NCBI GenBank assembly: GCA_905204225.1
Contig: CAJKZK010000001.1
Span: forward strand, 4,506 to 68,505
DNA length: 64,000 bases
Direction of reading: 5' to 3'
From: an uncultured Bacillota bacterium
Lineage (GTDB): Bacteria; Bacillota_I; Bacilli_A; RFN20; CAG-449
Position 1 is the stretch's first letter; each line of letters starts with the position of its first letter. Position numbers and translations under genes: made by a program. Positions 2,596 to 34,851 of the stretch are shown piece by piece. The notes under the pieces are model-generated. The model saw only the letters and a program-made list of their open reading frames with translations. It made no database searches and was not told the DNA's origin.

Positions 2596-3096
2596 TTAAA
2601 TTCTATTTAGCTTTTTTATAACTAATGATGAAATTATAGCAATAAAAACACTTGAAATAATACTTGATAATAAAATAATTGGTAAATATAGAATCATACC
2701 TTTCTCTATGATTATCATTGCACATAATATTTGTCCTAGACAATGAAATATAGCGGACACAGTACTAAGGGTATATATTGATATCTTTTTAATAAAACTA
2801 AATAATATTACCATAATTGATGAAAGTAAAAAGCCGGATAATGATAATAAAAATGAATTTGAGAATAAACCATTAAACATAACTCCTACTAATAACACTC
2901 GTAGTATGCCAATAGAAAAATATTCTTTTCTACCATAATAATATAAAACTATTAAATTTACTGTATTAGCTAAACCTAATTTTACACCTGGAAAAGATAC
3001 AAATAGAGGAACTAATGATTCTATGTAATTTAGTAAAGTTGCTAAAGCTAGAAACATCGCTAAGGTTGTTAATTTTTTTATTTTATTGTTTCTCAT
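2596..3096 (-). CDS. Gx transporter family / heptaprenyl-diphosphate-synthase-component-I-like small polytopic membrane protein
   Basis: 166 aa with about 5 TM helices. Its position next to a NusG-II protein and ApbE is typical for this family. Confidence 0.45.
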   Translation of the reverse strand: MRNNKIKKLTTLAMFLALATLLNYIESLVPLFVSFPGVKLGLANTVNLIVLYYYGRKEYFSIGILRVLLVGVMFNGLFSNSFLLSLSGFLLSSIMVILFSFIKKISIYTLSTVSAIFHCLGQILCAMIIIEKGMILYLPIILLSSIISSVFIAIISSLVIKKLNRI

Positions 3097-3105
3097 AATT
3101 AGTAC

Positions 3106-3603
3106 CTACACGATAATATCATCATCAGGAGTAGATGAAGAATTAACAATTTTTATTCTAACATAATTAGGCATACAAACTAATGGTGGATTATTTGGGT
3201 TGGAAATAGAACCTTGGTTTGAGCATATATGATTTGGTGATGTTTCTTTAACAATGGTTACTTTTTTATTGTTTATTTCGATTACTAAATCGTCTAATAA
3301 TAATGAATTATTTGCAAATTTTCTATCACTTGTAGTTGGATAAATATCATCATATTTATTTGATATGTCTTCTTTGAATAATATAATATATCTAGGATCT
3401 AAATCGTCTTTAGAAGGAGCTAAATCTGTTTTATAAATAACTTTGTTATCATAATATACTTCTACTTTAGCATTATCATTATTACTAGGAAATAAATAAA
3501 TAAAAAGTGTAAAAAATAAAGATATAAAAACGGTTGAAATAATGACAATTATATCAACTTTATTCCAGTCTAAGGCGAATGTTTTTTTGCTTTCTATTCT
3601 CAT
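3106..3603 (-). CDS. NusG domain II-containing membrane-anchored protein
   Basis: N-terminal TM helix plus a C-terminal domain with ICSNQG...LVCMPN motifs. Typical partner of Gx transporter genes. Confidence 0.45.
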   Translation of the reverse strand: MRIESKKTFALDWNKVDIIVIISTVFISLFFTLFIYLFPSNNDNAKVEVYYDNKVIYKTDLAPSKDDLDPRYIILFKEDISNKYDDIYPTTSDRKFANNSLLLDDLVIEINNKKVTIVKETSPNHICSNQGSISNPNNPPLVCMPNYVRIKIVNSSSTPDDDIIV

Positions 3604-19840: not shown

Positions 19841-19871
19841 TTGACAAACTAGACGGGGGGGGGGTTATAAT
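19841..19871 (+). promoter_or_regulatory. Sigma-A-type promoter with perfect TTGACA (19841-19846) and TATAAT (19866-19871) hexamers and a 19-bp spacer containing a G10 tract (19855-19864)
   Basis: Hexamers and homopolymer read directly. Lies about 25 bp upstream of the LytTR regulator start. Confidence 0.6.
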
Positions 19872-19896
19872 TTTGTTAATATTAATGAGGTGTTTA

Positions 19897-20610
19897 ATGA
19901 TTAGGATTGCTATAGTAGATGATGATACTACCGATGCAGAAACATTAGAAAATATTTTAAAAAAATATGAAAAAGAACATTCTAATGTTAATTTTTACAT
20001 TAAAAAATTTTCTACAGCAATTGCTTTTTTAGATAAATATCAACCATTTGATATAGTTTTTATGGATATTGAAATGCCAACAATGACAGGTATGGAAGCA
20101 TGTTATAAACTAAGAGAAATTGATCAAACAATAGCAATTATATTTGTCACAAATATGGCACAATTTGCAGTTGAAGGTTATATTGTTAGAGCATTTGATT
20201 TTGCAGTTAAGCCAATTAGTTATGGTAATTTGGCGTTAAAATTAGATAGAGTAATAGAGTATATTTCTCATTTTACTGGGAAAATAATACATATTAAAAC
20301 ACCTGAAAAAACATTACAAATTTCTTTAGAAGAAATTATTTATATTGATATTTATAATTATATTCTTACATATCATACTATTAATGATAAAATCGATGTA
20401 ACTACTACAAGCTTATTAGATATAGAAAAACAATTAATAAATTATGGATTTTTTAAAATCAATAGAAGTACAATAGTTAATCTAAAATATATAAAATCTG
20501 TTAAAGATACATTAGTTGATGTTAATGGTAATATTTTAACTTTATCAAGAAGAAGAAAAAAAGAATTTATGGAAAAATTAACAGAATATTTTGGAGAAAG
20601 CAATATTTAA
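19897..20610 (+). CDS. LytTR-family response regulator (receiver domain plus LytTR DNA-binding domain). Start taken at the ATG at 19897 (MIRIAIVDDD).
   Basis: Receiver aspartate context IVFMDIEMP. C-terminal LytTR-like region. RBS GAGG. Confidence 0.8.
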   Translation: MIRIAIVDDDTTDAETLENILKKYEKEHSNVNFYIKKFSTAIAFLDKYQPFDIVFMDIEMPTMTGMEACYKLREIDQTIAIIFVTNMAQFAVEGYIVRAFDFAVKPISYGNLALKLDRVIEYISHFTGKIIHIKTPEKTLQISLEEIIYIDIYNYILTYHTINDKIDVTTTSLLDIEKQLINYGFFKINRSTIVNLKYIKSVKDTLVDVNGNILTLSRRRKKEFMEKLTEYFGESNI

Positions 20611-20611
20611 T

Positions 20612-21964
20612 ATGTCAAATTTATTTTTCTTTAGACCCTTATTTATGTTAGAACTAATTTTAGCAGAAGCAATGTTTCTTTCAAAATTAAATATAAGAAC
20701 TAATTTTTTTATAAGATTGATTATTTCTTTGATTTTTTGCTTTGGTGTTTCTTTTATTTTACCAACAAATTTTGAAAATATTTATTATTATTCTTTTTTA
20801 TTTTTAATAATGTTTTTGGTTACTATTATAGCGAGTATGTTTTGTTTTAAAGCACCTCTTAAAAATATTTTATTTTGTGCAATTGCTGGATATACTATAC
20901 AACATATTGCTTCAGAATGTTATGAAATGTTTAATAATTATATGAACTTGATTATTGAAAAATCATTTAATTTTTATGATGCTGAAGGCACTATTGATAT
21001 AAATGCACAAAATTATTTCTTTTTATTAGTCTATTTTGCTATTTTTGTAATTATTTATGGCTTAGTATATTATTTAATTGTACCTAAAGTTGAAAAATAC
21101 AAAGTTTTACAAACTAACAATAAAGTAATATTATCTTTATCAATTTTTATTGTTTTAATTGATGTTATTATAGGAGCAATAATTTTATTTATTTTACCTG
21201 AAAAATATTTAGTGTCATTATCAAAATTAGTAAAATTTAGTGTATATTTTTTATTACATTTTTATAACATTTTATGTTGTGTTTTAGCAATAGTATTATT
21301 AATTGAGCTACCTCGCCGTAGTAGTGCGGAAAGTGATTTAATAACTGTTAATAAATTATATAAAATAGAACAATCACAATACAATTCAGTAAAAGAAAAT
21401 TTAGATTTAATTAATATTAAATGTCACGATTTAAAGCATCAAATGAGAAATATACTTAATAATAAACAAGTAGACACAAGTGAAATAAATAAAATAGAGC
21501 AAGCAATTGATATTTATGATTCTACATATAAAACAAAAAATGAAGCATTAAATATTGTATTAATGGAAAAAGGGTTAATATGTAAAAAAAATAAAATCGA
21601 ATTAACTTGTATAATAGATGCATCAAAATTATCTTTTATTAAAGATAATGATATTTATTCATTATTTGGCAATTTATTAGATAATGCGATTGAGGCAGTA
21701 AAAAATCTTGAACAAAGTAAAAGAGTAATTAGTTTGCAAATAAAGAATAGTGGAGAATTTTTAATTATAAAAACATATAATAATTATAATGGAAAAATCA
21801 ACTTTGTTAATAATTTACCAATTACAACAAAAGAAGATAAAGATTATCATGGATATGGATTAAAAAGCATTAATTATATTGTTAAATCTTATGATGGACA
21901 AATGAAAATAAAAACTAATAATCAAGTTTTTGATTTGACAATTCTTTTTCAAACAAACAAATAA
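20612..21964 (+). CDS. AgrC/HPK10-like membrane sensor histidine kinase (about 6 TM helices plus GHKL ATPase)
   Basis: N-terminal polytopic region. H-box KCHDLKHQ. C-terminal LLDNAIEA...HGYGL GHKL motifs. Translationally coupled to the upstream response regulator. Confidence 0.7.
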   Translation: MSNLFFFRPLFMLELILAEAMFLSKLNIRTNFFIRLIISLIFCFGVSFILPTNFENIYYYSFLFLIMFLVTIIASMFCFKAPLKNILFCAIAGYTIQHIASECYEMFNNYMNLIIEKSFNFYDAEGTIDINAQNYFFLLVYFAIFVIIYGLVYYLIVPKVEKYKVLQTNNKVILSLSIFIVLIDVIIGAIILFILPEKYLVSLSKLVKFSVYFLLHFYNILCCVLAIVLLIELPRRSSAESDLITVNKLYKIEQSQYNSVKENLDLINIKCHDLKHQMRNILNNKQVDTSEINKIEQAIDIYDSTYKTKNEALNIVLMEKGLICKKNKIELTCIIDASKLSFIKDNDIYSLFGNLLDNAIEAVKNLEQSKRVISLQIKNSGEFLIIKTYNNYNGKINFVNNLPITTKEDKDYHGYGLKSINYIVKSYDGQMKIKTNNQVFDLTILFQTNK

Positions 21965-21968
21965 ATAC

Positions 21969-21999
21969 CATTCACAAGATATAATAAATCATTCACAAG
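21969..21999 (+). promoter_or_regulatory. LytTR-box-like direct repeat: CATTCACAAG at 21969-21978 and 21990-21999, 21 bp between repeat starts, upstream of the 22088 lipoprotein gene
   Basis: Perfect 10-bp direct repeat read directly. This architecture is known for AgrA/ComE/PlnC operators. Confidence 0.5.
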
Positions 22000-22087
22000 T
22001 AAAGTATTTTCATTTCTTTACTTGTTTTTTATTATTAGTTCGCTTATAAAAGCAGTTTTTGTGCTTTTTAAGTAGAGGGAGGAAAAT

Positions 22088-23638
22088 ATGAAAATTAAAT
22101 CAAAACTTTTACTTTTGATTTCATTTATGTTGCCAATTTTTTCGTTAACAAGTTGTAATGAAACTCCTAAACATGTTTGTAATGAACCATGTCCAACATG
22201 TGGAGGTTGTCTTGATAATAAATGTCAAGAAGAAGCATGCTTAACAAAATGTAGTTGTGAAGTAATAGTTAAATCAGTGGATATAACAAGTATGCCGTTA
22301 AAAACAAATTATTATCCAGGAGAGATTTTTTCACCTGAAGGTTTAGTGGTTAAAGCTAATTTATCAAATGGAAAAACAAAAAAATATAGTTATAGAAAAT
22401 TTGATACTTGGACTCATAAGGACGAACCATTAACTGAAGATATTAAAAAAATCACTTTTACAATTCCGAAATATAATTTTGATTTTGATGTAGAGATTAA
22501 AGTTGAATTACCTAATGATTTATCTATTGTTGTTGATAAAAGTTTACTAAAAGAAACATATTTAACTACTGATATTATTGATTTTACAATAATAAATGTT
22601 AGAGCTAAAATTGGTGAAACAATGACTTTGCTAAAAGCTGATCAATGGAAATTATATGATGGTACAAATCTTATCGAAGATAAAACACAGGTAAGTCTAA
22701 GTGAAGGTGAACATTTAATAAAAATTGAATATGTACCAACTGTTGATTATAGTTTTACTTTAAAAATAAATGATCCAAATAATGTTATTTCTCCAGATCA
22801 TGTTGAAGCAGAAGATTGTGTTTATAATATAGACTCAAACGCACCATACACAATTAAAGAAAAAGTTGCAAATGCTCAATATCCTGATGAAAATGGTAAT
22901 TTATCAGATCAATTATTTAAAAAAATACCAAATGGAGCAAGTGGTACAGGAGCAGTTTCATCATTATCTGCATCACAAAATGGTAAGAATGTCTATTTTA
23001 AATTTAATATTAAAGTTCCTACAACTGGCGAATATGATTTATTAGCAAGAGTGCAAGGAACAGGTGAAAATCAAATTAAAAATAATTTTAAAGTTTCTAT
23101 TAATAATGGTGAAGAAATGATTTCAACAAGCACTGATACAATTCATGCTGGTAATCAAATTAAAAATCAATATGGTAAAGAAGGTTTTATTGGTTGGTAT
23201 AACATGTTTTGGTGGAATGTTGTCAATATTGGAACATATTCACTTACAAAAGGTGATAATGAAATAAAAATTACAATGCCAAAAGGATTAGGTGGAAATA
23301 TTGATTATTTTGAAGTTGTAAGTAAAGGTGAAATACATGAAACTCAATTATTTAGTATGAGAGAAGGAAGTAGAGTAAATTTATCAACAAATCCAATTTA
23401 TTTAAAATATGGTGAAAAATTAATAGATAAAGTAGCTACACCAATTGGTCACCCATGTAAATATACATTAATTTATTTAAGACTAGATGATGGTTGTGAA
23501 ATTCCTGTAACTGAAGATTTAATGAACGAAATTGATTATACCAAAACTGGTGAGCAAGAAGTAAATATAACATTTACTAAAAAAGAAAAAACATATAATG
23601 CTTCATTCAAAATAATAATTGAAGCTGAAGAAGAATAG
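22088..23638 (+). CDS. Surface lipoprotein with a Cys-rich N-terminal segment, a CBM6/CBM35-like carbohydrate-binding module and an Ig-like domain
   Basis: Lipobox LTSC. 10 Cys within about 35 aa after the signal peptide. EAEDCVY...GEYDLLARVQG...WWN...NIDYFEV jelly-roll motif shared with the next gene. Confidence 0.6.
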   Translation: MKIKSKLLLLISFMLPIFSLTSCNETPKHVCNEPCPTCGGCLDNKCQEEACLTKCSCEVIVKSVDITSMPLKTNYYPGEIFSPEGLVVKANLSNGKTKKYSYRKFDTWTHKDEPLTEDIKKITFTIPKYNFDFDVEIKVELPNDLSIVVDKSLLKETYLTTDIIDFTIINVRAKIGETMTLLKADQWKLYDGTNLIEDKTQVSLSEGEHLIKIEYVPTVDYSFTLKINDPNNVISPDHVEAEDCVYNIDSNAPYTIKEKVANAQYPDENGNLSDQLFKKIPNGASGTGAVSSLSASQNGKNVYFKFNIKVPTTGEYDLLARVQGTGENQIKNNFKVSINNGEEMISTSTDTIHAGNQIKNQYGKEGFIGWYNMFWWNVVNIGTYSLTKGDNEIKITMPKGLGGNIDYFEVVSKGEIHETQLFSMREGSRVNLSTNPIYLKYGEKLIDKVATPIGHPCKYTLIYLRLDDGCEIPVTEDLMNEIDYTKTGEQEVNITFTKKEKTYNASFKIIIEAEEE

Positions 23639-23648
23639 AGGAAAAAAT

Positions 23649-23780
23649 ATGGAAAAAAATATGTATTACACTCCAATTATAAGTGTAAAGAAAATTAATT
23701 TAGATGATGTAATTTGTGTCTCTTTTGATACAAAAGATGAAAATAACATTTATCAAAATGTTGATGTAACATTGGATTAA
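23649..23780 (+). CDS. Unannotated 43-aa ORF (MEKNMYYTPIISVKKINLDDVICVSFDTKDENNIYQNVDVTLD) with strong RBS AGAGGA, exactly filling the gap between the two CBM-protein genes
   Basis: ATG 8 nt after the RBS. Has a homologue at 33343-33480. No signal peptide. Confidence 0.4.
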   Translation: MEKNMYYTPIISVKKINLDDVICVSFDTKDENNIYQNVDVTLD

Positions 23781-23794
23781 GATGAGGTTATAAA

Positions 23795-26032
23795 ATGAAA
23801 AAATATAATAAATTAATGATATTATCATTATCAATGTTAATGATGATACCTTCAATAATTGTTAATAATGAAAACTCATTAATATGTTCTACAACTGATG
23901 TATTTAATGAAAAAGCACATATTGAAACAAGATTACTTAATCAATTAACTGATACTAATGAAACTGTAAAATGTTCTAATATGTATGTACAATATGGTTA
24001 TGATGGAACTAATTATTATTTAAGATACGCTACTGCAATTAAAGGTGATATTGAAACATTAAATTACAAAATGTTTATTAATGATGAAGAATATATTGCT
24101 GGAGAAAAAAATGCAGATGTTTTATACAAAAGCATATTATCTAATGGTACTAGACAATATTATAATGGTAACGAATTAACAACTACTCCAACTGAATATT
24201 TATGGACTTGCTATACTATAAAATTTGCTAGTGAAAAACATCAAGCAGATAATATAGCTGTTTATTTAAATATAAATAATGCAAACACTGTTTCTAAATC
24301 AACATCATTATTAGAAGAAATGAATGTTGAACCAGATCATATTGAAGCAGAAGATTGTGTTTATTTACTTGAAAATGATAATAAATACACTTTAAGTGAA
24401 GCTTCAGCAAATGCTCAATATCCTGATGAAAATGGTAATTTATCAGATCAATTATTTAAACAAATACCAAATGGAGCAAGTGGTAAAGGTGCAGTTTCTT
24501 CATTATCTAAAGGACAAAATGGTACAAAAGTATATTTTGAATTTACTGTTAACGCTCCAACTTCTGGAGAATATGAACTTTTAGCGAGAGTACAAGGAAC
24601 AGGTGAAAGCTCAATTAATGGATTATTTAATGTAAGTATTAATGGTGAAGAAGGAACTTTAAATACTTCAAATGATAAAATACTTAAAGGTAATCAATTA
24701 AAAGAACAATATAACACATCTAGTGATTATTTGAGTTGGTATAACATGTTTTGGTGGAATATGGTTAATATTGGAACATATTCTTTAAATAAAGGTGAAA
24801 ACACAATAAAAATCACATTGCCTAATGGATTAAGTGGTAATATTGATTATTTTGAAATTCAAAACAAAAATAGTGCAAAAACATCTAAAATTTTCAGTTT
24901 TAGAGAAGGATCAAGAAATGAATTATCAACAAATAATGGATTAACTTTAATTGAAAATGGATTATTATCTGATAAGTCTGGTACTCCAGCAAATCACCCT
25001 TGTAAATATACTTTAATGTATATAAGATTATTAGATGGTAGTGAACACCCAATTACTGAAGAAATGTTAACTAATTATAGTAATATTGATTATACAAAAG
25101 TTGACCAAGAACAAATTGTAACAATTAATTATAAAGAAAATACAGCGTCTTTTAAATTATTTATTGTTAAAGAAAATTATGATATTTATGAAGCAGAAGA
25201 TAATGTTTATAAGTATAAAAATGGAGAAGAAACCACAAATAAATATGCTTCAGTTAACAATTTAACTAATATAGAATATTATGAAAATGAAACATTAAAG
25301 TCAGAACAAACTAAAGATGGCTCAAGCAATAAAAAAGTTATAGCTTTAGGTGCAGGTGCTAGCAATCATGGTAAAGAAGTTTTCTTTAAATTTGAAGTAA
25401 ATGTACAAGAAACAAAAGATTATTATTTATTTTCAAGATTACAATCTTCAAATGAAAATGATTTGATTAATTGTTTTGAAATTAATATAAATGAAGAAAA
25501 AGATGAAAATGGAAAATTAAAATATTATAAAAATAATTATAGTCAAATTCCTTCATTATGTAATCAAACAACAACATTTAATAATGTATGGAATAATGCA
25601 ATGTGGTTTGGTATGGCAAATTTAGGAAAAATTCATTTAACTAAAGGAAACAATATAATTAGAGTTCGTATGCCAAATGGAATAAGTGCGAATATTGATT
25701 TCTTCCAAGTTAGAGAAACAGATTCATTTGGTGCAAATTTATTTACAGTAAGAGATGGATCACATACTAAACTTGATTCATTAACACTTGAAAAAAATCA
25801 AAAAATTACTGATATTATTTCAACTCCTAGTGCACACCCATATCAATATACATTAATGTATTTAAGATTACCAAATGGTAATGAGTATCCTGTTGTTACA
25901 AAACCTAGCGAAGGAACAAATGTAAATTATGTTGGTGTTTTAAGTGATATTGATTATACTTTATCTTCTCAAAAAGTCACCGTTACTAACGGAAATTACA
26001 AATTATCATTTACTTTAAATATAAATTTATAG
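23795..26032 (+). CDS. Secreted surface protein with two CBM6/CBM35-like modules and Ig-like domains (paralogue of the 22088 gene)
   Basis: Signal peptide. Two copies of the EAED...YxLxxRxQ...WxN...NIDxF module, the first closely similar to the 22088 protein. Confidence 0.6.
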   Translation: MKKYNKLMILSLSMLMMIPSIIVNNENSLICSTTDVFNEKAHIETRLLNQLTDTNETVKCSNMYVQYGYDGTNYYLRYATAIKGDIETLNYKMFINDEEYIAGEKNADVLYKSILSNGTRQYYNGNELTTTPTEYLWTCYTIKFASEKHQADNIAVYLNINNANTVSKSTSLLEEMNVEPDHIEAEDCVYLLENDNKYTLSEASANAQYPDENGNLSDQLFKQIPNGASGKGAVSSLSKGQNGTKVYFEFTVNAPTSGEYELLARVQGTGESSINGLFNVSINGEEGTLNTSNDKILKGNQLKEQYNTSSDYLSWYNMFWWNMVNIGTYSLNKGENTIKITLPNGLSGNIDYFEIQNKNSAKTSKIFSFREGSRNELSTNNGLTLIENGLLSDKSGTPANHPCKYTLMYIRLLDGSEHPITEEMLTNYSNIDYTKVDQEQIVTINYKENTASFKLFIVKENYDIYEAEDNVYKYKNGEETTNKYASVNNLTNIEYYENETLKSEQTKDGSSNKKVIALGAGASNHGKEVFFKFEVNVQETKDYYLFSRLQSSNENDLINCFEININEEKDENGKLKYYKNNYSQIPSLCNQTTTFNNVWNNAMWFGMANLGKIHLTKGNNIIRVRMPNGISANIDFFQVRETDSFGANLFTVRDGSHTKLDSLTLEKNQKITDIISTPSAHPYQYTLMYLRLPNGNEYPVVTKPSEGTNVNYVGVLSDIDYTLSSQKVTVTNGNYKLSFTLNINL

Positions 26033-26040
26033 GTTTAAAT

Positions 26041-29000
26041 ATGGAAAAATCACTTTTAAGAAAAGTAATTATTTTACCTTGCATGGCCGTAATATTAGCT
26101 GGCCTTGCAGTAGGTAATTACGAATGTTATATTCATGAAAATGAAATTACATCTCAACTTGTTCCTGCTAAAATAACTTATGATAATTCAAAATTATCAG
26201 AAGCACAAATGGCGGCAGGTAATGTTGTCAATCAAATAGCTCAAGAAGGTATGACATTAATGAAAAATGATGGAACATTACCTTTAGAAATTGATGAAGA
26301 CGATGAAGATGGTTATCCAATCAATTTATTTGGAATAGGAAGTACTGATGCCGAAAATGGCTTTTACTTATTTGGTGGTGGCTCTGGTTCTGTAACTTTA
26401 TATGATAAAGATAAAGTTACTTTACAACAAGGAATTGAACAAGCTGGCTTTGAAGTTAATACTTCCTTACTAAATTTCTTTAAAGAAGAAGGAGAAAATC
26501 CTAAAGAAAGTTGGTGGGAAAAAGAACAAAATATTCTTAAATCAGCAAAAGCATTTTCTGATACAGCTGTAGTAACTATATCAAGATTTACTGGTGAAAA
26601 TTGTGATGCTGATGAAAATACAACTGATCAAACTTCATATTCATTTAGTAAACCTTATCAAGCATCTTATAATGATAATGATTTAGATGGTAGAAATTTT
26701 TGTCAATTATCATTAAGAGAAGAAGCTATGTTAAAGTGGGTTAGCAATAATTTTGGTGAAGTAATAGTTTTAATCAATAGTGGAAACATGATGGAATTAG
26801 GTTTTTTAGACAATCCTAAAATTAATGCTATTTTGTATACTTCATATCCAGGAAAATCTGGAACAAAAGCAATAGGAGATATTCTAGCTGGAAAAGTAAA
26901 TCCAAGTGGACATTTAACTGATACTTTTGTTTATGATACCAAAAGTGATCCAACATGGGCTAATGTTATTGCTAAAAAAGATAATGGTACACAAATTCAC
27001 TATGTAGAAGATATTTATACTGGGTATAGATGGTATGAAACAGCTGACAAAGAAGGATATTTTAATTCTATTGGTAAAAACTATAATGAAGTTGTTTTTA
27101 GACCATTTGGATATGGATTATCTTATACAACATTTGAATGGAATTTTAAAAATATTTCTTTTAAAAATGGTGATACAATTATACCAGCAATTAATGGAGA
27201 TAATGTTAAAGATAAAGATACAAAAATTTTAATTCAGGTTGAAGTAAAAAATACTGGATTAGTCGCTGGTAAAGATGTTGTTCAATTATATTACACCGCA
27301 CCATACACAAAAGGTGGTATTGAAAAAGCGTATGTTAATTTAGTTGCATTTGAAAAAACAGAGATGCTATATCCACTTTCTCAATCAAGTGAAGACAAGC
27401 CGAATAGTCAAATTTTGTCTTTAGAATTTAGCTTGTATGATATGGCAAGTTATGATGCTTATGATAAAAATAAAAATAATTTTACAGGGTATGAACTTGA
27501 AAAAGGTGAATATCAATTAAAATTACAAAATAATGCTCATGAATTAAATAAGTGTGAAAATAGTACTATTAAAATAAATTTAACTAATGATTTAAAATGG
27601 GATAAAGATCCAAATACAAATGGAACTATAAAAAATAGATTTACAGGTTCGACAGCTGAAAACAATATTCCAATTGATGGTAATAATAATGGTGAAAAAA
27701 TAACATATTTGTCAAGAGCAGATTTTTTATCAACATTTCCAAAAACAACTACTCCAAATAGAACTTCAGGAGCAGATTCTACTAAAGATGGAACTTATGT
27801 TACAGATGAAGAATATTATAAAGATATTACAATGCCAACTTTAAATAGTACTGAAACAAATTTATTATTATATACTTTAGAAAATGGTGAAAAAGCGTCA
27901 ACTAATGATTTAAGTGGATATACAAACAATAAAATAATTCCTAACGAAGAATTAATTTTAAAATTAGGTGAAAACTATGATGCACCTGAATGGGAACAAT
28001 TATTGAATCAATTATCATATATAGAAATAGTTGATATTGTTGCTCGTTGTAGTTGTGGAACAGCTCCAGCTGAATCTATTGGAAAACCTAAAACAAGAGT
28101 TTTTGATGGACCTCAAGGAATTAACAATTCAACACTTTCTCCAGAACAATTAGCTGATGTAACTGCATTTCCAGCTGAAACTTTAGTAGGTATGACTTTT
28201 AACAAAGAACTTGCTAGATTAGAAGGTGCGGCAATGGCAACTGAAGCTTCATTAACAGGAACAATAGGAATATATGCTCCAGCAGTTGATTTGCATCGTC
28301 ATGCTTATAATGGTAGAAATTATGAACAATATAGTGAAGATCCTTATTTATGTGGAATTATGGGTGGTAAAATGGCAACAGGTGCTATTACACATGGTTG
28401 TCAAGTCTCTATAAAACATTTTGTTTGTTCTCAACCTGGAAGAAATCCTAGAGACTATAATACATGGTTAACAGAACAAAATTTAAGAGAAAATTATCTA
28501 AAACCGTTTGAAATTGCTATTAAAGAAAGTAAAGCAAATTTCTTGATGACATCATTTAATAACATAGGCGGAGTAAGATGTGCTTATTCTTATCAATTGT
28601 TAAATGGAGTATTAAGAGAAGAATGGGGATTCAAAGGATCAATTATTACGGATTATGATGTTAATAGTGCATCAAGAACTACTGCAAATTTAATTAGATC
28701 TGGTAATGATTTAAGATTCCAAGGAAGTGTTGCTAATAGAGCAGAACTTGATAAAAACAATGTAGTTGATGTTTATTTAGCTAGACAATCTGTAAAAAGA
28801 GACTTATGGTCATTTTGTAATACATATTATAGAACTAAAAATTATGATCCAAATTACACGTCAACAAATGTTATTGTCACTCAACCATTTGTATGGTGGA
28901 TAATGGTAGTAATAATGATAGATGTGATAATTATAGGTGGAATTGGTGTAGGAATTTTCTTCTTATTTAAGCCAAAGAAAAAAGCACTAGTAAATAATAT

Positions 29001-29193
29001 TGAGACAGATAGTTCTCAAGAAAAATCTGAACATAAATTTTTATACAAAAAGAAAGAAAATCTTTCTTCAACTAGCGCTCAAAATGTTGTAATTGATAAT
29101 AACCAAGAAAAATTTTCTATATCAAAAAAAGATTATGAAGAACTCATTGATTTAATTGATAAATTACAAGATAAATTAAAAAAATTAAAATAA
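26041..29193 (+). CDS. Glycoside hydrolase family 3 (beta-glucosidase/xylosidase-like) with permuted domain order and N- and C-terminal TM anchors
   Basis: GH3 C-domain-like region first (MKNDGTLPL, VNPSGHL, FGYGLSYTTF), then GH3 N-domain motifs (KHF, GFKGSIITDYD with catalytic Asp). One TM helix near each terminus. Confidence 0.65.
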   Translation: MEKSLLRKVIILPCMAVILAGLAVGNYECYIHENEITSQLVPAKITYDNSKLSEAQMAAGNVVNQIAQEGMTLMKNDGTLPLEIDEDDEDGYPINLFGIGSTDAENGFYLFGGGSGSVTLYDKDKVTLQQGIEQAGFEVNTSLLNFFKEEGENPKESWWEKEQNILKSAKAFSDTAVVTISRFTGENCDADENTTDQTSYSFSKPYQASYNDNDLDGRNFCQLSLREEAMLKWVSNNFGEVIVLINSGNMMELGFLDNPKINAILYTSYPGKSGTKAIGDILAGKVNPSGHLTDTFVYDTKSDPTWANVIAKKDNGTQIHYVEDIYTGYRWYETADKEGYFNSIGKNYNEVVFRPFGYGLSYTTFEWNFKNISFKNGDTIIPAINGDNVKDKDTKILIQVEVKNTGLVAGKDVVQLYYTAPYTKGGIEKAYVNLVAFEKTEMLYPLSQSSEDKPNSQILSLEFSLYDMASYDAYDKNKNNFTGYELEKGEYQLKLQNNAHELNKCENSTIKINLTNDLKWDKDPNTNGTIKNRFTGSTAENNIPIDGNNNGEKITYLSRADFLSTFPKTTTPNRTSGADSTKDGTYVTDEEYYKDITMPTLNSTETNLLLYTLENGEKASTNDLSGYTNNKIIPNEELILKLGENYDAPEWEQLLNQLSYIEIVDIVARCSCGTAPAESIGKPKTRVFDGPQGINNSTLSPEQLADVTAFPAETLVGMTFNKELARLEGAAMATEASLTGTIGIYAPAVDLHRHAYNGRNYEQYSEDPYLCGIMGGKMATGAITHGCQVSIKHFVCSQPGRNPRDYNTWLTEQNLRENYLKPFEIAIKESKANFLMTSFNNIGGVRCAYSYQLLNGVLREEWGFKGSIITDYDVNSASRTTANLIRSGNDLRFQGSVANRAELDKNNVVDVYLARQSVKRDLWSFCNTYYRTKNYDPNYTSTNVIVTQPFVWWIMVVIMIDVIIIGGIGVGIFFLFKPKKKALVNNIETDSSQEKSEHKFLYKKKENLSSTSAQNVVIDNNQEKFSISKKDYEELIDLIDKLQDKLKKLK

Positions 29194-30518: not shown

Positions 30519-32483
30519 ATGAATAAAATTAATAAAGAACAAATACTTATTTCTAGACATTATATTATGTCAAATGGACAAGAAGACAACAATAGAGATA
30601 AATATTATGCTTATTTATTAAATAAATTTGGCATCGAAATTGTCAATCCTAAATTTTTAAATAAAGAAGTTGTTCAACAATTAAAAAAATATTTAAAAAT
30701 TAATATACCTAATTCATTTTATAAAAATCCTCAAGATTTAAAATATTTTTCTTGTGAAGAATTATATTTAGAACAGCTTATTTCTTATATCAATATTGAT
30801 TTGATTGAAGGAAATCATAATAAAAATACAAATTTTAATCGTATAGAATTATTTAATAAAGTATTACCTAAATATGAGAATGGTAAAGAAATTAAAATAA
30901 GAAAATATAATATAATTCTAGAAAATGAAATTAATAAAATATTGAATGATATATTTGATGCATATTGTAATTATTCTCGTCCTTTTTCTATTGAAGAAGC
31001 AAATGAATTTTTATATTTATATTCATTAGGATTTTATCATAATCAAGATATTAAATGTAAAGATAATATTTTTTATTTATTAGATAAAGATATAAATTTT
31101 GCAAAATTACTTGATAGAAAAGATGTTGTAAAATTCTCTATTCTTAAATTTGGTAATGCAGATTTTAATAAAATGAACAAATCACAAAAAAACACATTGA
31201 AATTAATTAAAAATATGATTCCTTTGGTTAAAAAAACATCATTAAGTAAAAAGCAAGCTAAATTTTTTAATAAATTATGTAAAGAATGTAATTTAAAAAT
31301 TAGTGATAACAATGATAATTCACCATATAAAGCTGCAATAAAAGAAATAAAAAATGGAAATATTATTTCTGCTAGTAAAATATTTTTAGATAATGGATCT
31401 TTATTTGCTCGTAATTTTAGATTTTTATTATCAAGAGCTAATAATGAAGAAAAAAATATTTTAATAAATATGCTTCCTAATGACAATCCTATTTTGCTAT
31501 ATCAAATATTAACAACTATTTTAAATGATAAAGACAAAAGAATATTTACATTTAAAAATAATAATTTAGTGAAATGTCATATTGAAACTGATTATGAAGA
31601 AAAATATAGAAAATCAAAATTAGATTATGAAACATGTGAAACACTATCTAATATTATTAAAAATAAAATTGATTCATATTATTTGTCTTTACCAAAATTA
31701 GGAAAAATATATATTTCTGAAAAATTTAAAAAAATTGCTTTGCCTGTTAATAATTCGTGTTCAGGAAGAGGTTTAGATGTGCTTCCAACTGGTTCAAGAA
31801 TTAAAATTAATGGTAATTATATAAGAACTTTTTGTTATTGGAAAAATGTATTTGATATTGATACATCGGCATTATTTATAAAAGATGATTTTAATAAAAA
31901 TAATGATTATGTTGAACTTTCTTGGAGGAATTATAATACTCTTCCTTTAGGAAAATCTGCTTTATCTTCTGGTGATTGTAGAGATGAAAATGGAGCAGAA
32001 TATCAAGATTTTAAAATAGATGAATTGTTAGAATTAGGTTATAGATATGTTATTTATACTCTTAATGGCTATGGTGGAAAACTTAATGAAGGTGACATTG
32101 TATGTGGTTATCAAAATAAGAATAACTTAAATACAAGTGCATGGGATCCTAAAAATATTGAATTTAAAATTAATGTTATAAGTAATTCATGTGCTTATAT
32201 AGGCTTTGCAATAGATTTAAAAACAAAAGAAATTATTGTTTTAAACCTTAATTCAAGTGGAAATAATCAAGTAGTAAATAAAAAACAATTATTATTAATA
32301 GAAAGATATTTAAACGAAAATTATTTAAATTATAGTATGTATGATTTACTTAAATGTAGAGGAGAAATTACTTCAAAAGAAGAAGCAAATATCATATTTG
32401 ATGAAGACTATATACCTTTAGATAATCAAAAAACAATTAAATCTTATGAAATGGAAAAACTTGTTGCATTGATTAATGAATAA
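30519..32483 (+). CDS. Large cytoplasmic protein with a C-terminal TerD-like (Ca-binding, tellurite-resistance-family) domain. The N-terminal 400 aa are uncharacterised.
   Basis: C-terminal FCYWKN...DIDTSALFIKDD...SGDCRDENGAEYQDFKIDEL, matching the TerD signature GlgWD/DlDasa/GDnxxGeg.dDE. Confidence 0.45.
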   Translation: MNKINKEQILISRHYIMSNGQEDNNRDKYYAYLLNKFGIEIVNPKFLNKEVVQQLKKYLKINIPNSFYKNPQDLKYFSCEELYLEQLISYINIDLIEGNHNKNTNFNRIELFNKVLPKYENGKEIKIRKYNIILENEINKILNDIFDAYCNYSRPFSIEEANEFLYLYSLGFYHNQDIKCKDNIFYLLDKDINFAKLLDRKDVVKFSILKFGNADFNKMNKSQKNTLKLIKNMIPLVKKTSLSKKQAKFFNKLCKECNLKISDNNDNSPYKAAIKEIKNGNIISASKIFLDNGSLFARNFRFLLSRANNEEKNILINMLPNDNPILLYQILTTILNDKDKRIFTFKNNNLVKCHIETDYEEKYRKSKLDYETCETLSNIIKNKIDSYYLSLPKLGKIYISEKFKKIALPVNNSCSGRGLDVLPTGSRIKINGNYIRTFCYWKNVFDIDTSALFIKDDFNKNNDYVELSWRNYNTLPLGKSALSSGDCRDENGAEYQDFKIDELLELGYRYVIYTLNGYGGKLNEGDIVCGYQNKNNLNTSAWDPKNIEFKINVISNSCAYIGFAIDLKTKEIIVLNLNSSGNNQVVNKKQLLLIERYLNENYLNYSMYDLLKCRGEITSKEEANIIFDEDYIPLDNQKTIKSYEMEKLVALINE

Positions 32484-32522: not shown

Positions 32523-33191
32523 ATGAAAAAAATATTTATAATTATTTCATGGATTTTAGTTATATCTACAATTATATTCATTCCTTTAACATTTAATAAA
32601 TGTATAGATGTTTCATCTTTTATTGATTTTATCGTTTTTATTGATCCAGGCCATGGTGGAAAAGACAATGGAGCGACATATTTAGATATATATGAAGATG
32701 AAATAAATTTATCTATAGCAAAAAAATTATATGAAAAATGTATATCTAAAAATCTAATTGCGTATATATCTCGAACTGATGATTATGATTTGGCTTCATT
32801 ATACGCGAAAAATAGAAAAAATGAAGATTTATATAAAAGAGTAGAAAATATCAACCATTCAGGTTGTGATGTATTTATATCCATACATGTAAATAAATAT
32901 CCAACAAATGATGTTAATGGACCCATGGTTTATTATGATAAAAATAATGAATATTCATATTTATTATCTAAAAATATTCAAAAAGAATTAAATATTTTAT
33001 CTAACAAAAATAAAACAGTTCATTATGAAGATTTTTATTTATTCAAAAATTGTACTAAACCAGGTGTTATTGTTGAATGTGGCTTTATTTCTAATGAAGA
33101 AGAAAGAAGCAAACTTATTGATGATAAATATCAACAAGCGATAGTAGATGCTTTATATCAAGGAATATATAATTATTATTTAAATAATTGA
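32523..33191 (+). CDS. N-acetylmuramoyl-L-alanine amidase (Amidase_3, CwlD-like) with an N-terminal TM anchor
   Basis: IDPGHGGKDNGA and ISIHVN motifs. Confidence 0.7.
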   Translation: MKKIFIIISWILVISTIIFIPLTFNKCIDVSSFIDFIVFIDPGHGGKDNGATYLDIYEDEINLSIAKKLYEKCISKNLIAYISRTDDYDLASLYAKNRKNEDLYKRVENINHSGCDVFISIHVNKYPTNDVNGPMVYYDKNNEYSYLLSKNIQKELNILSNKNKTVHYEDFYLFKNCTKPGVIVECGFISNEEERSKLIDDKYQQAIVDALYQGIYNYYLNN

Positions 33192-33342
33192 AACCCCTTT
33201 CTTACAAATAATAAAAAATATTATTGACAAATAATATAACTTTTTATAAGATGAAATATCAAAAGATAGCATTTTTATGCTATTTTTTAAACTAAATTAT
33301 TAAAAAGAAAGGAGATACGTGTAATACGTAAAAATAAGAATT

Positions 33343-33480
33343 ATGAAAAAAGAATATATTATACCAACAATATCTTTTATTAATGTGAATTATGAAGATG
33401 TTATATTAGCAAGCAATTTAAAAGCAAATGAAACCCTTGATTGGAACACAAGTGTTAATGGTGAAACATGGGGTAAATAA
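33343..33480 (+). CDS. Unannotated 45-aa ORF (MKKEYIIPTISFINVNYEDVILASNLKANETLDWNTSVNGETWGK), homologous to the 43-aa ORF at 23649 and ending 1 nt before the LRR protein gene
   Basis: Shared Y-x-P-x-IS-x-x-x-N-x-[DE]-DVI motif. Weak RBS. Confidence 0.3.
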   Translation: MKKEYIIPTISFINVNYEDVILASNLKANETLDWNTSVNGETWGK

Positions 33481-33481
33481 A

Positions 33482-34648
33482 ATGAAAAAAATTAAAAAAT
33501 TATTTATTCTTCCATTATTAGCGTTATCTCTATTTAATGTTAATAATACTCAATTAACTAATTCTCAATTTCAATTAGAAGAAACAACTAATGATGAAAA
33601 TATCGTTGGAATTAGAAAAGAAATTACATCTACTTCAAATAATGATGTTAAAGTATCTAATATTCTAAAAGTACAAGCATCAAATGTAGAAAATGGTAAA
33701 AGATCATTAAGATTTGTTGCAGGCATATCAAGCCTTTCATTAAAAGCACATTTCCACAGAGAAGAAATCAAAGTAAATAATGAAGTAATAATGAAAGCAA
33801 ATGATATTGAAGTCACTTGTGCTTATTCAAAAATATTAAATGGAACTGTTGAACAAACAGCAAATACAGTATTTGAAAATAATGAGTATAAATATTTTGT
33901 TGCATATACATTAAAAGATATTCCAGAAGAATATTGGTCAACTGTAATTAATGTTTCTCTTATTTTAGAAGATGGTAATAAAGCCGCTACTAAAAAAGCT
34001 AATGTAGATGCGTTTGATGAATCAAAAACAAATGAAGAATGTTTTTCGTTTAGTAAATTGAATGATGGTAACTATGCCATTGCCGTGAAAAATGATTATA
34101 AAGCAACAATAAAGGAATTAAATATCCCATCATATTATTATGAAACGATTGATACAAACAATGAATTTGTAAAAACAAAAAATATGATAACGACTATTGG
34201 ATATAAATCAAATAGTAGTGTTGAAATTATAGGCTTTAGTGGTTGTACAAATTTAACTTACATTAATATTCCAAGTACAATTACACAAATTAAAGATTCG
34301 TCTTTTACAAATTGTAGTTCTTTAACAACTGTTATTTTTAATTCTGGTGTTAATATTGGACATTGGGTATTTGTTTCATGTAATAAAATTGAAAAACTAA
34401 TTTTACCAAAAGGTACAGTTCTTGGAATGCAACCATTTGGTGATCACCATGAAAATCTATCTGTATATTATGAAGGTGAAACAATACCTACAAGCTGGAA
34501 TCAATTCTGGAGAGAGGCGTCAAAATTTAAATTTTATTTATTTTCATCAACTCAACCTACATCAAATCCAACTAATGCAGATGGATATTGGCATTATGTA
34601 AATAATGAACCAGTTAAATGGGAAATTAGCACTGTAGTGAGCAAATAA
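33482..34648 (+). CDS. Secreted protein with BspA-type leucine-rich repeats. Start taken at the ATG at 33482 (MKKIKKLFILP).
   Basis: Signal peptide. C-terminal repeats of the form GCTNLTYINIPSTITQIKDSSFTNCSSLTTVIF (LRR_5-like). Confidence 0.5.
   Translation: MKKIKKLFILPLLALSLFNVNNTQLTNSQFQLEETTNDENIVGIRKEITSTSNNDVKVSNILKVQASNVENGKRSLRFVAGISSLSLKAHFHREEIKVNNEVIMKANDIEVTCAYSKILNGTVEQTANTVFENNEYKYFVAYTLKDIPEEYWSTVINVSLILEDGNKAATKKANVDAFDESKTNEECFSFSKLNDGNYAIAVKNDYKATIKELNIPSYYYETIDTNNEFVKTKNMITTIGYKSNSSVEIIGFSGCTNLTYINIPSTITQIKDSSFTNCSSLTTVIFNSGVNIGHWVFVSCNKIEKLILPKGTVLGMQPFGDHHENLSVYYEGETIPTSWNQFWREASKFKFYLFSSTQPTSNPTNADGYWHYVNNEPVKWEISTVVSK

Positions 34649-34774: not shown

Positions 34775-34851
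<77 letters not shown>

Follow-up and report, generated by a model that had tools for sequence, protein, structure and literature searches.

Introduction

Among the described peptide systems, the closest to the two genes treated here are the lasso peptide clusters of Firmicutes (paeninodin and pseudomycoidin type), the precursors of which begin with MKK-aromatic-x-x-P-x-[IL]-E. The aromatic-x-x-P-x-[IL]-E segment has been reported as a recognition stretch in Firmicute lasso leaders, including rumen examples (Table 3, PMC7533575). These clusters encode a PqqD protein, an HPr-kinase-like kinase, a nucleotidyltransferase of the NTP_transf_5 type and an ATP-binding cassette (ABC) exporter, and their leaders carry a Thr two to three residues before the leader end. 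Further points of comparison are the SynChlorMet (SCM) and radical S-adenosylmethionine (SAM)/SPASM systems, with ScmC (TIGR04249) and a paired PqqD-family protein, and the double-glycine-leader peptides (ComC, BlpC, class II bacteriocins) and Agr autoinducers, which are small leader-bearing peptides with a dedicated ABC exporter. In this study, we analyzed pep1 and pep2, two small genes in a 64,000-nucleotide stretch of an uncultured Bacillota bacterium (assembly GCA_905204225.1, contig CAJKZK010000001.1, positions 4,506 to 68,505; hereafter the window), together with the peptide family to which they belong. Many of the features named above recur in this family or in a gene cassette found beside some of its members.

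We concluded that pep1 and pep2 are, judging from their conservation, real translated genes, and that the build of their family is, by its sequence, that of a leader-plus-core precursor peptide. With slightly better than even confidence, we interpret both products as precursors that depend on a RiPP recognition element (RRE), resemble those of peptides that are made by ribosomes and modified after translation (RiPPs), and are matured in trans by a cassette encoded elsewhere. RRE-dependent ribosomal peptide precursors are of a known kind, and what is new is their genomic pairing with genes for surface proteins. The two peptide genes and their immediate neighbors are as follows.

33343–33480, plus strand: pep1, gene for a 45-aa precursor-like peptide, stop codon TAA, translation MKKEYIIPTISFINVNYEDVILASNLKANETLDWNTSVNGETWGK
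33343–33414, plus strand: proposed leader of pep1, residues 1–24, MKKEYIIPTISFINVNYEDVILAS
33415–33477, plus strand: proposed core of pep1, residues 25–45, NLKANETLDWNTSVNGETWGK
33482–34648, plus strand: gene for a secreted BspA-type leucine-rich repeat (LRR) protein, PF13306 LRR_5 with E = 3.4e-12, N-terminus MKKIKKLFILPLLALSLF..., a signal peptide by inspection
22088–23638, plus strand: gene for a 516-aa lipoprotein with an LTSC lipobox and Big_3 and CBM-like domains, ending 10 nt ahead of the start codon of pep2
23649–23780, plus strand: pep2, gene for a 43-aa paralogue of pep1, translation MEKNMYYTPIISVKKINLDDVICVSFDTKDENNIYQNVDVTLD
23649–23723, plus strand: proposed leader of pep2, residues 1–25, MEKNMYYTPIISVKKINLDDVICVS, followed by the proposed core FDTKDENNIYQNVDVTLD
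23795–26032, plus strand: gene for a 745-aa secreted protein, N-terminus MKKYNKLMILSLSMLMMIPS..., a paralogue of the 516-aa protein (BLAST cluster w516/w745/L115)

Two Related Peptide Genes in One Window

The core regions in which the two peptides resemble each other, YIIPTISFINVNYEDVILAS in pep1 and YYTPIISVKKINLDDVICVS in pep2, are identical at 9 of 20 positions by direct reading and share the pattern Y..P.IS...N.[DE]DVI..S. A sequence-only reading of this DNA had given about 9 of 20, with which our count agrees, and both translations were reproduced exactly. The same reading had placed the end of each open reading frame (ORF) 1–14 nt before a gene for a secreted or surface protein, and the measured gaps agree: the last base of the pep1 stop is 33480, with the LRR gene starting at 33482 (1 nt), while the pep2 stop ends at 23780 and the 745-aa gene begins at 23795 (14 nt).

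Pairwise BLASTP of pep1 against pep2 returned no alignment, and the pair alone is not significant; the peptides are too short for this comparison, so profiles were needed. A profile of 105 other family members, built without relatives of pep1 or pep2, matched only pep1 (E = 1.5e-11) and pep2 (E = 1.5e-7) among the 997 six-frame segments of the window, the next-best segment standing at E = 0.43. The match of pep2 involves no circularity, because its sequence does not conform to the DNA pattern by which the family was assembled. The similarity proposed earlier is thus null by pairwise BLASTP and far beyond chance by profiles. The window, which has a G+C content of 27.5% and holds ribosomal-protein operons, a cell-wall amidase gene and many secreted-protein genes, contained no third copy according to a motif scan of all six frames and the profile. 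The further copies that the sequence-only reading had suggested looking for were found in the related metagenome-assembled genome (MAG) CAKPBC01, which has at least three (L060, L100, L115; loci are designated by L numbers), all beside genes for signal-peptide proteins.

A Family of Unnamed Leader-Bearing Peptides

The family was collected with the degenerate codon pattern M-K..Y..P.I(7)[ED]D[VI][VI] from contigs representing one genome per species. Counts of loci given in this text (119, 110, 107, 105, and 92) refer to the pattern matches listed, the total being more than 119 genome loci; among the matches listed, 110 are ORFs of 26–76 aa. Members were defined operationally as peptides of 30–80 aa in which an N-terminal M-K-x(1-3)-Y-x-x-P-x-I-x(7)-[ED]-D-[VI]-[IV]-x-x-S precedes an acidic tail, encoded within 40 nt of a same-strand signal-peptide gene, and pep1 (1 nt) and pep2 (10 and 14 nt) have these properties. 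At the protein level, a database search with an 89-sequence alignment returned 176 clusters, all of 37–76 aa, with no Pfam domain and no name beyond "hypothetical protein"; no Pfam or NCBIfam model of the family was found. When 1.84 billion representative proteins were searched with a profile of both subfamilies, 22 clusters were obtained at E ≤ 1e-3. Of these, 20 are peptides of 41–83 aa with the same N-terminus, whereas the remaining two (2301 and 397 aa) have the appearance of repeat-driven or spurious hits. Literature searches found lasso-peptide papers only and nothing on the family or on a cyclase-less cassette. These searches support both parts of the earlier proposal, that these genes form a small-protein family and that it was undescribed.

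The hosts are gut and rumen Firmicutes, spread over Clostridia and the Bacilli lineages that are wall-less or AT-rich: Oscillospiraceae, Lachnospiraceae, Acutalibacteraceae, Ruminococcus, Christensenellaceae, Acholeplasmatales, Anaeroplasma, and MAGs labeled "Bacilli/Mollicutes". The consensus leader of about 24 aa reads M-K-K-x-Y-x-x-P-[E/x]-I-E-[IV]-x-x-[FI]-x-x-E-D-[IV]-I-T-[TA]-S. Its Tyr and Pro were required by the search pattern; the Ser at its end, present in 103 of 107 sequences, and the Thr two residues earlier, present in 61%, were not. The two marks of lasso leaders, aromatic-x-x-P-x-L/I and a Thr near the cleavage site, are accordingly both found in the family. The tail after the Ser has a median length of 20 aa (range 8–52), a high content of G, D, E, T, S, and N and a mean charge of −3.4, with Cys in only 4% of tails. 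A Trp or Phe stands among the final six residues in 71% of tails vs. 37% of shuffled tails, and none of 2000 shuffles reached 71%. In an AlphaFold2 model of pep1 from a 44-sequence alignment, residues 1–20 are extended (pLDDT 86–88) and the tail is of low confidence, in keeping with tails predicted to be disordered. One member (L097, minus strand, upstream of 2673–3398) owes its length of 119 aa to a tail composed of many SNE tripeptides in a row, and it is directly followed by the kinase-like gene.

Evidence for Translation

The claim that both ORFs are genes was borne out by several lines of evidence. The reading frame is kept in close relatives, including across an in-frame indel of one codon. 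Gene pep1 has 25 close homologues with identities of 74–100%. The ratio of nonsynonymous to synonymous polymorphism (pN/pS) is 0.24–0.44 for pep1 and 0.25 for pep2, which indicates purifying selection. A Shine-Dalgarno (SD)-like motif lies 4–20 nt upstream in 102 of 110 family members; in pep2 it is AGAGGA at a proper distance, overlapping the stop codon of the upstream gene, and pep1 is an exception, its sole good SD (AGGAG) lying about 27 nt upstream of the ATG. A chance or overprinted ORF was rejected because of the selection and family evidence together. Gene pep1 was left uncalled in L209–L212, where it is intact, which is an annotation blind spot for the family.

Pairing With Genes for Secreted Proteins

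Coupling to surface proteins had been proposed from the two loci of the window, and it holds across the family. An ORF on the same strand ends no more than 40 nt before the start codon of the peptide gene in 82 of the 105 loci listed (78%). Signal-peptide-like N-termini, scored by a crude regular expression, were found in 51 of 54 complete upstream neighbors and 13 of 15 tight downstream neighbors, vs. 79 of the 220 further ORFs of these loci. These neighbors are of unrelated architectures (Flg_new, Big_2, LRR_5, Glug, SASA, CBM77, GH16, NEAT, and DUF285).

The arrangement is a different matter. A peptide gene placed before a surface-protein gene, as the sequence-only reading described it, is correct for pep1 and pep2, but family-wide it is the minority, and the reverse order is usual: among 92 scorable loci, the peptide gene stands after a secreted-protein gene only in 59, between two such genes in 15, before one only in 8 and beside neither in 10, so that it follows a secreted-protein gene in 74. 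Gene pep2 is of the "between two genes" type, and pep1 is of the rarer promoter-proximal type that stands only before a gene. No tightly following gene is present in 64% of loci, and half of these have a terminator-like hairpin after the peptide gene.

The upstream secreted proteins of L004, L045, L015, L063, L088, L093, L099, and L112 have in common a C-terminal domain, roughly 250 aa in length and unmatched in Pfam, which ends in a helix such as LKNLVKALYLYNxAA, and their peptides share tail motifs such as ELPII or ELPIF. This sharing may reflect cognate pairing or simply common descent.

A Candidate Processing Cassette in Related Loci

Genes for kinase-like and/or S26-like proteins lie within 8 kb of the peptide gene in 19 of the 119 loci listed (about 16%), mostly directly downstream of it. 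They are part of a five-gene cassette encoding an HprK/ScmC-like kinase, a PqqD recognition protein, an S26-like peptidase, an ABC exporter, and an NTP_transf_5 protein. The kinase-like P-loop protein of about 235 aa has its best matches, all sub-threshold, to SynChlorMet ScmC (TIGR04249; 21–27 bits vs. a cutoff of 125) and HprK-related kinases. Between the kinase and peptidase genes lies an ORF of 85–99 aa of the PqqD family (PF05402, E of about 1e-13, above the gathering cutoff). The S26/S24-like serine peptidase of about 150 aa has the motifs GxSMxP...LHRI...GDN and no membrane segment, and is thus of a soluble kind; the exporter is MsbA-like and lacks a C39 peptidase domain; and the NTP_transf_5 protein matches PF14907 at 5.5e-53. 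Searches of PDB sequences with the kinase-like and NTP_transf_5 proteins gave no informative relatives. In L035 (Anaerotaenia torta DSM 100431), a surface-protein gene, the peptide gene, and the complete cassette occur together.

The association was also examined in reverse, in 80 metagenome loci chosen solely by homology to the kinase-like protein. A same-strand family peptide (hidden Markov model E < 0.01) was present in about 26 of the 80, and further divergent ones were recognized by eye (e.g., in L155). The PqqD ORF was present in 63 of the 80, as well as in 13 pattern-selected loci, and the peptidase gene came next in most of the kinase-selected loci. A radical SAM/SPASM RiPP maturase (TIGR04463, 3e-43) was encoded in 9 of the 80, and additionally in L117 and L094. 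Where a family peptide was detected at a radical SAM locus (7 of the 9, and L117), its core contains Cys and in five cases is Cys-rich. The occurrence of the family leader with a radical SAM maturase and Cys-containing cores indicates that bona fide RiPP clusters use this leader type as well.

The cassette also occurs without an adjacent peptide gene (L182, L174, L186), which is consistent with action in trans, and several genomes have three to four dispersed peptide loci with no cassette nearby. Among the carriers of the cassette are members of the AT-rich Bacilli/Acholeplasmatales lineages from which the window also comes (L070, L102, L182). In several loci (L174 9959–11674, L186 10223–11677, L102 6878–8000), the cassette is followed by genes for a Wzz chain-length determinant and a BY-kinase of the capsule type, a gene neighborhood that hints at a link to cell-surface polysaccharide loci.

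Comparison With Described Systems

The cassette has the enzymes of Firmicute lasso clusters listed above, and the family has the beginning and the near-terminal Thr of their leaders. In contrast to lasso systems, the cassette loci examined encode neither an Asn-synthetase-like cyclase nor a transglutaminase-like B2 protease, and have an S26/S24-like peptidase in their place; a sample of loci (L035, L031, L098, L070, L102, L155, L182) scanned with Pfam and NCBIfam yielded neither enzyme. Published lasso leaders score at most 7 bits on the family profile. A lasso core would have a small first residue and, to form the macrolactam, Asp or Glu at position 7, 8, or 9; in the family, Asp or Glu is found at core positions 7–9 in 49–53% of sequences, as predicted from a D/E composition of 20%, with no positional peak. 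The precursor genes of the family are also dispersed and paired with surface-protein genes. A reading of the tails as lasso cores was rejected on the D/E positions, the lack of a cyclase in the loci scanned, and the low scores of the published leaders.

The likeness to SCM and radical SAM/SPASM systems consists of ScmC as the best match of the kinase, the paired PqqD-family protein and, in a minority of family loci, an added radical SAM/SPASM maturase with Cys-containing, often Cys-rich cores. Most members, including pep1 and pep2, differ from these systems in having no Cys and no radical SAM neighbor. With double-glycine-leader peptides and Agr autoinducers, the family has in common the small leader-bearing peptide and the dedicated exporter, and pep2 in particular has a neighboring LytTR regulator/histidine-kinase pair with direct-repeat boxes. 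However, the family has no GG motif, its exporter has no C39 domain, no AgrB is encoded, the cores are strongly acidic, and cleavage is proposed to be carried out by a separate cytoplasmic S26-like enzyme.

The pep2 Island

Gene pep2 lies in an island of about 9 kb inserted between rplQ and rplM-rpsI and absent from the related locus L002. Apart from the genes already given, its features are as follows.

19873–29193 (about 19.8–29.2 kb): pep2 island
19873–20610, plus strand: LytTR response regulator with Response_reg and LytTR domains, heading the island
20591–21964, plus strand: GHKL membrane histidine kinase with HATPase_c_5 and a polytopic N-terminus
21969–21999, plus strand: direct repeat, two copies of CATTCACAAG with a 21-nt period, between the histidine-kinase stop and the 516-aa gene
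26041–29193: GH3 glycosidase gene, after the 745-aa gene

The repeat is unique in the window, where none would be expected. A 21-nt period is typical of LytTR boxes. In a second genome with the same gene order (L126), a different repeat, two copies of ACCATTTAAGAAAAA, occupies the same place with the same 21-nt period, and the repeats at 21969–21999 are probably a LytTR binding box. The same regulator/kinase module adjoins the pep2 homologue P0030 in a genome other than that of the window. The context of pep2 is thus of the Agr/Com type in its regulator, kinase and direct-repeat boxes, as a matter of context only; no AgrB-like or C39 gene was found in the island, and pep2 has no GG motif. No response regulators were found near the other approximately 115 family loci, so the two-component link is specific to the pep2 lineage and does not represent a general role.

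Upstream of the LytTR gene, the 19 nt that separate TTGACA (19841–19846) from TATAAT (19866–19871) contain a run of ten G (19855–19864). This is the window's sole run of at least eight G, with 0.1 expected. Near-identical assemblies have G8 (L210), G10 (L209), G11 (L211), and G12 (L212), giving spacers of 17–21 nt, and the tract is absent from the more distant L126. From its position and length variation, the tract looks like a slipped-strand phase-variable promoter of the two-component system. In some relatives (L001, L211), an extra gene of 619–623 aa follows the GH3 gene.

The pep1 Locus

The synteny of pep1 with the LRR gene is kept in L001–L003 and L123–124, and the following elements precede pep1.

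33224–33252, plus strand: sigma-70-type promoter of the pep1-LRR transcript, TTGACA-17-TAAGAT, conserved in relatives
33261–33288, plus strand: 12-bp hairpin composed of A-tract, stem, and U-tract, at the 5' end of the pep1 leader RNA, z = −3.2
33316–33330, plus strand: conserved 5-bp hairpin between the AGGAG SD and the pep1 ATG

The 12-bp hairpin lies right after the predicted transcription start. It forms 13 pairs in a three-sequence consensus fold, with two compensatory pair changes among three relatives, and could be a 5' stabilizer, an attenuator, or the terminator of the amidase gene. In L060, a more distant relative, SD and second hairpin are laid out likewise, although the hairpin sequence differs. 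Rfam searches of 32900–33700 gave chance-level matches only, with no known riboswitch or leader. A start-stop mini-ORF (GTG-TAA) after the AGGAG was considered and rejected, as it is not conserved (L001 has GTT).

An alternative in-frame ATG of the LRR gene at 33458 would overlap pep1, and gene callers use the upstream ATG (L001 10119, L209 19826). On the upstream side, a gene for a 654-aa protein without a Pfam match (30519–32483) keeps its place between rpsI and the amidase gene in all relatives, and a tRNA-Ile(GAT) gene (34775–34851) directly follows the LRR gene.

Proposed Maturation and Rival Explanations

Considering the above results, we propose a plausible route for these peptides as RRE-dependent precursors. 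The peptide genes would be co-transcribed with genes for secreted or surface proteins, family-wide usually as the last gene, as pep2 after the 516-aa gene. The aromatic-x-x-Pro-x-Ile-Glu stretch of the leader would be bound as an extended strand by the small PqqD-family protein, and the soluble S26/S24-type serine peptidase would cut at the invariant Ser. A cut after the Ser is suggested by Thr/Ala/Leu at −3 and Ser at −1, which fit the signal-peptidase rule, and a cut before it by a Thr at −2, as in lasso leaders. The HprK/ScmC-like P-loop kinase and the NTP_transf_5 enzyme may decorate the peptide by phosphorylation and nucleotidyl or glycosyl transfer, and the peptidase-less ABC exporter would release it. 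A PqqD protein with peptidase and modifying enzymes is encoded together with the precursor in related loci, but not in the window or in 20-kb orthologous loci; as the cassette is absent from this window, pep1 and pep2 would be matured in trans.

Several observations weigh against this interpretation. Neither the 64-kb window nor the orthologous loci of 20 kb contained a cassette gene, PqqD, or radical SAM gene, and 84% of the family loci listed have no cassette within 8 kb. The kinase-like and S26-like assignments are sub-threshold family matches, the cleavage site was placed from residue patterns only, and processing, modification, and export of the peptides are all proposed steps rather than observed ones. 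Gene pep1 has no normally spaced SD, and the conserved TGGGG in its WGK codons may partly mirror the SD of the LRR gene. We know of no precedent among RiPPs for the tight pairing with secreted-protein genes, which the RiPP model leaves unexplained. A fuller version of the model, a ribosomal peptide system of a class not recognized before in gut Firmicutes, in which the many dispersed precursor genes of a genome are each co-transcribed with a different surface or secreted protein gene and share one lasso-derived, cyclase-less cassette in trans, the acidic Trp/Phe-ended peptides act as ligands or signals for neighboring surface proteins, and pep2 is the autoinducer of a phase-variable LytTR switch, is put forward tentatively and is perhaps doubtful as a whole.

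In a rival explanation, the peptides would be unprocessed cytoplasmic or co-secreted accessories (a chaperone, cap, or partner) that act directly on the neighboring secreted protein, and the PqqD link would concern a side branch of the family only. This would suit the 78% of loci with the peptide gene within 40 nt after a neighbor gene, 94% of these neighbors having signal peptides, the subgroups in which a shared neighbor domain goes with shared tail motifs such as ELPII, and the 84% of loci with no cassette nearby. However, what is conserved in the family is the N-terminus, common across neighbors as different as Flg_new, Big_2, LRR_5, CBM, GH16, and NEAT proteins, and this argues against a partner-specific binder, which would be expected to vary there. 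The same N-terminus is also found on Cys-rich peptides beside radical SAM maturases and beside the PqqD gene, and there is no hydrophobic or signal segment for co-secretion, so we consider this explanation unlikely. Purely regulatory ORFs, upstream or intercistronic, acting by translational coupling or attenuation with a functionless product, could draw on the 1-nt gap between pep1 and the LRR gene, the conserved hairpins in the pep1 leader RNA and the position of pep2 between two genes with gaps of 10 and 14 nt. They were rejected as very unlikely because it is the protein that is conserved and because a following gene is missing in most members: the amino acids are kept across phyla-level distances with synonymous turnover, 64% of loci lack a tightly following gene, half of them with a terminator-like hairpin, and the C-terminal Trp/Phe is enriched.

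The two remaining proposals concern one gene each. The layout of the pep2 island is that of LytTR-controlled, peptide-induced operons, and pep2 may therefore be the precursor of an autoinducer that is sensed by the adjacent pair and activates its own operon, an idea that is plausible and, as a downstream function, compatible with RRE-dependent maturation. It agrees with the adjoining Response_reg/LytTR regulator and polytopic HATPase_c_5 kinase, with the 21-nt-period repeat before the operon, of which the architecture and not the sequence is kept in L126, and with the same gene order in that second genome. Against it stand the lack of a response regulator near the other approximately 115 family loci, by which it is no general role, and the order of genes in classical systems, which place the pheromone gene before the kinase gene; we regard it as rather unlikely. 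For pep1, a tryglysin-type (WGK) radical SAM RiPP precursor was considered, as the peptide ends in ...ETWGK, like the Trp-Gly-Lys C-terminus of streptococcal tryglysin; WGK also ends relatives in L019, L032, and L083, and pep1 gave a weak match to the NF050036 tryglysin_RiPP model (E 0.18). In contrast, the score of 12.4 bits is below the cutoff of 34 and comes from the N-terminal 15 residues only and not from WGK, pep1 has 45 aa vs. 21 aa in WgkA, twice the length, and some close relatives end in WGE or WGR. Tryglysin loci have an adjacent WgkB radical SAM enzyme, a WgkC RRE and an Rgg/SHP regulator (PMC8092268), whereas the window contains no radical SAM homologue or CxxxCxxC enzyme, no RRE/PqqD gene and no Rgg/SHP gene. 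With a sub-threshold score in the wrong region, the wrong length and no context, this proposal was rejected as extremely improbable.

If RRE-dependent maturation in trans is correct, exported peptides are the products of hundreds of genes, so far unannotated, in Firmicutes that abound in the human gut and the rumen. Their one-to-one wiring to surface proteins of adhesin-like and carbohydrate-active kinds would point to an unexplored layer of cell-surface biology or signaling. Such maturation would also imply a new type of leader peptidase in ribosomal peptide systems, namely an S26/S24-like enzyme that is soluble and acts together with a PqqD protein. For annotators, it would provide a simple model of a family that is unnamed and, as with pep1 in L209–L212, sometimes missed by gene callers. 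An index of an assembly collection lists the pep2 sequence, without any change, in 672 blocks, and the organism is therefore a common one.

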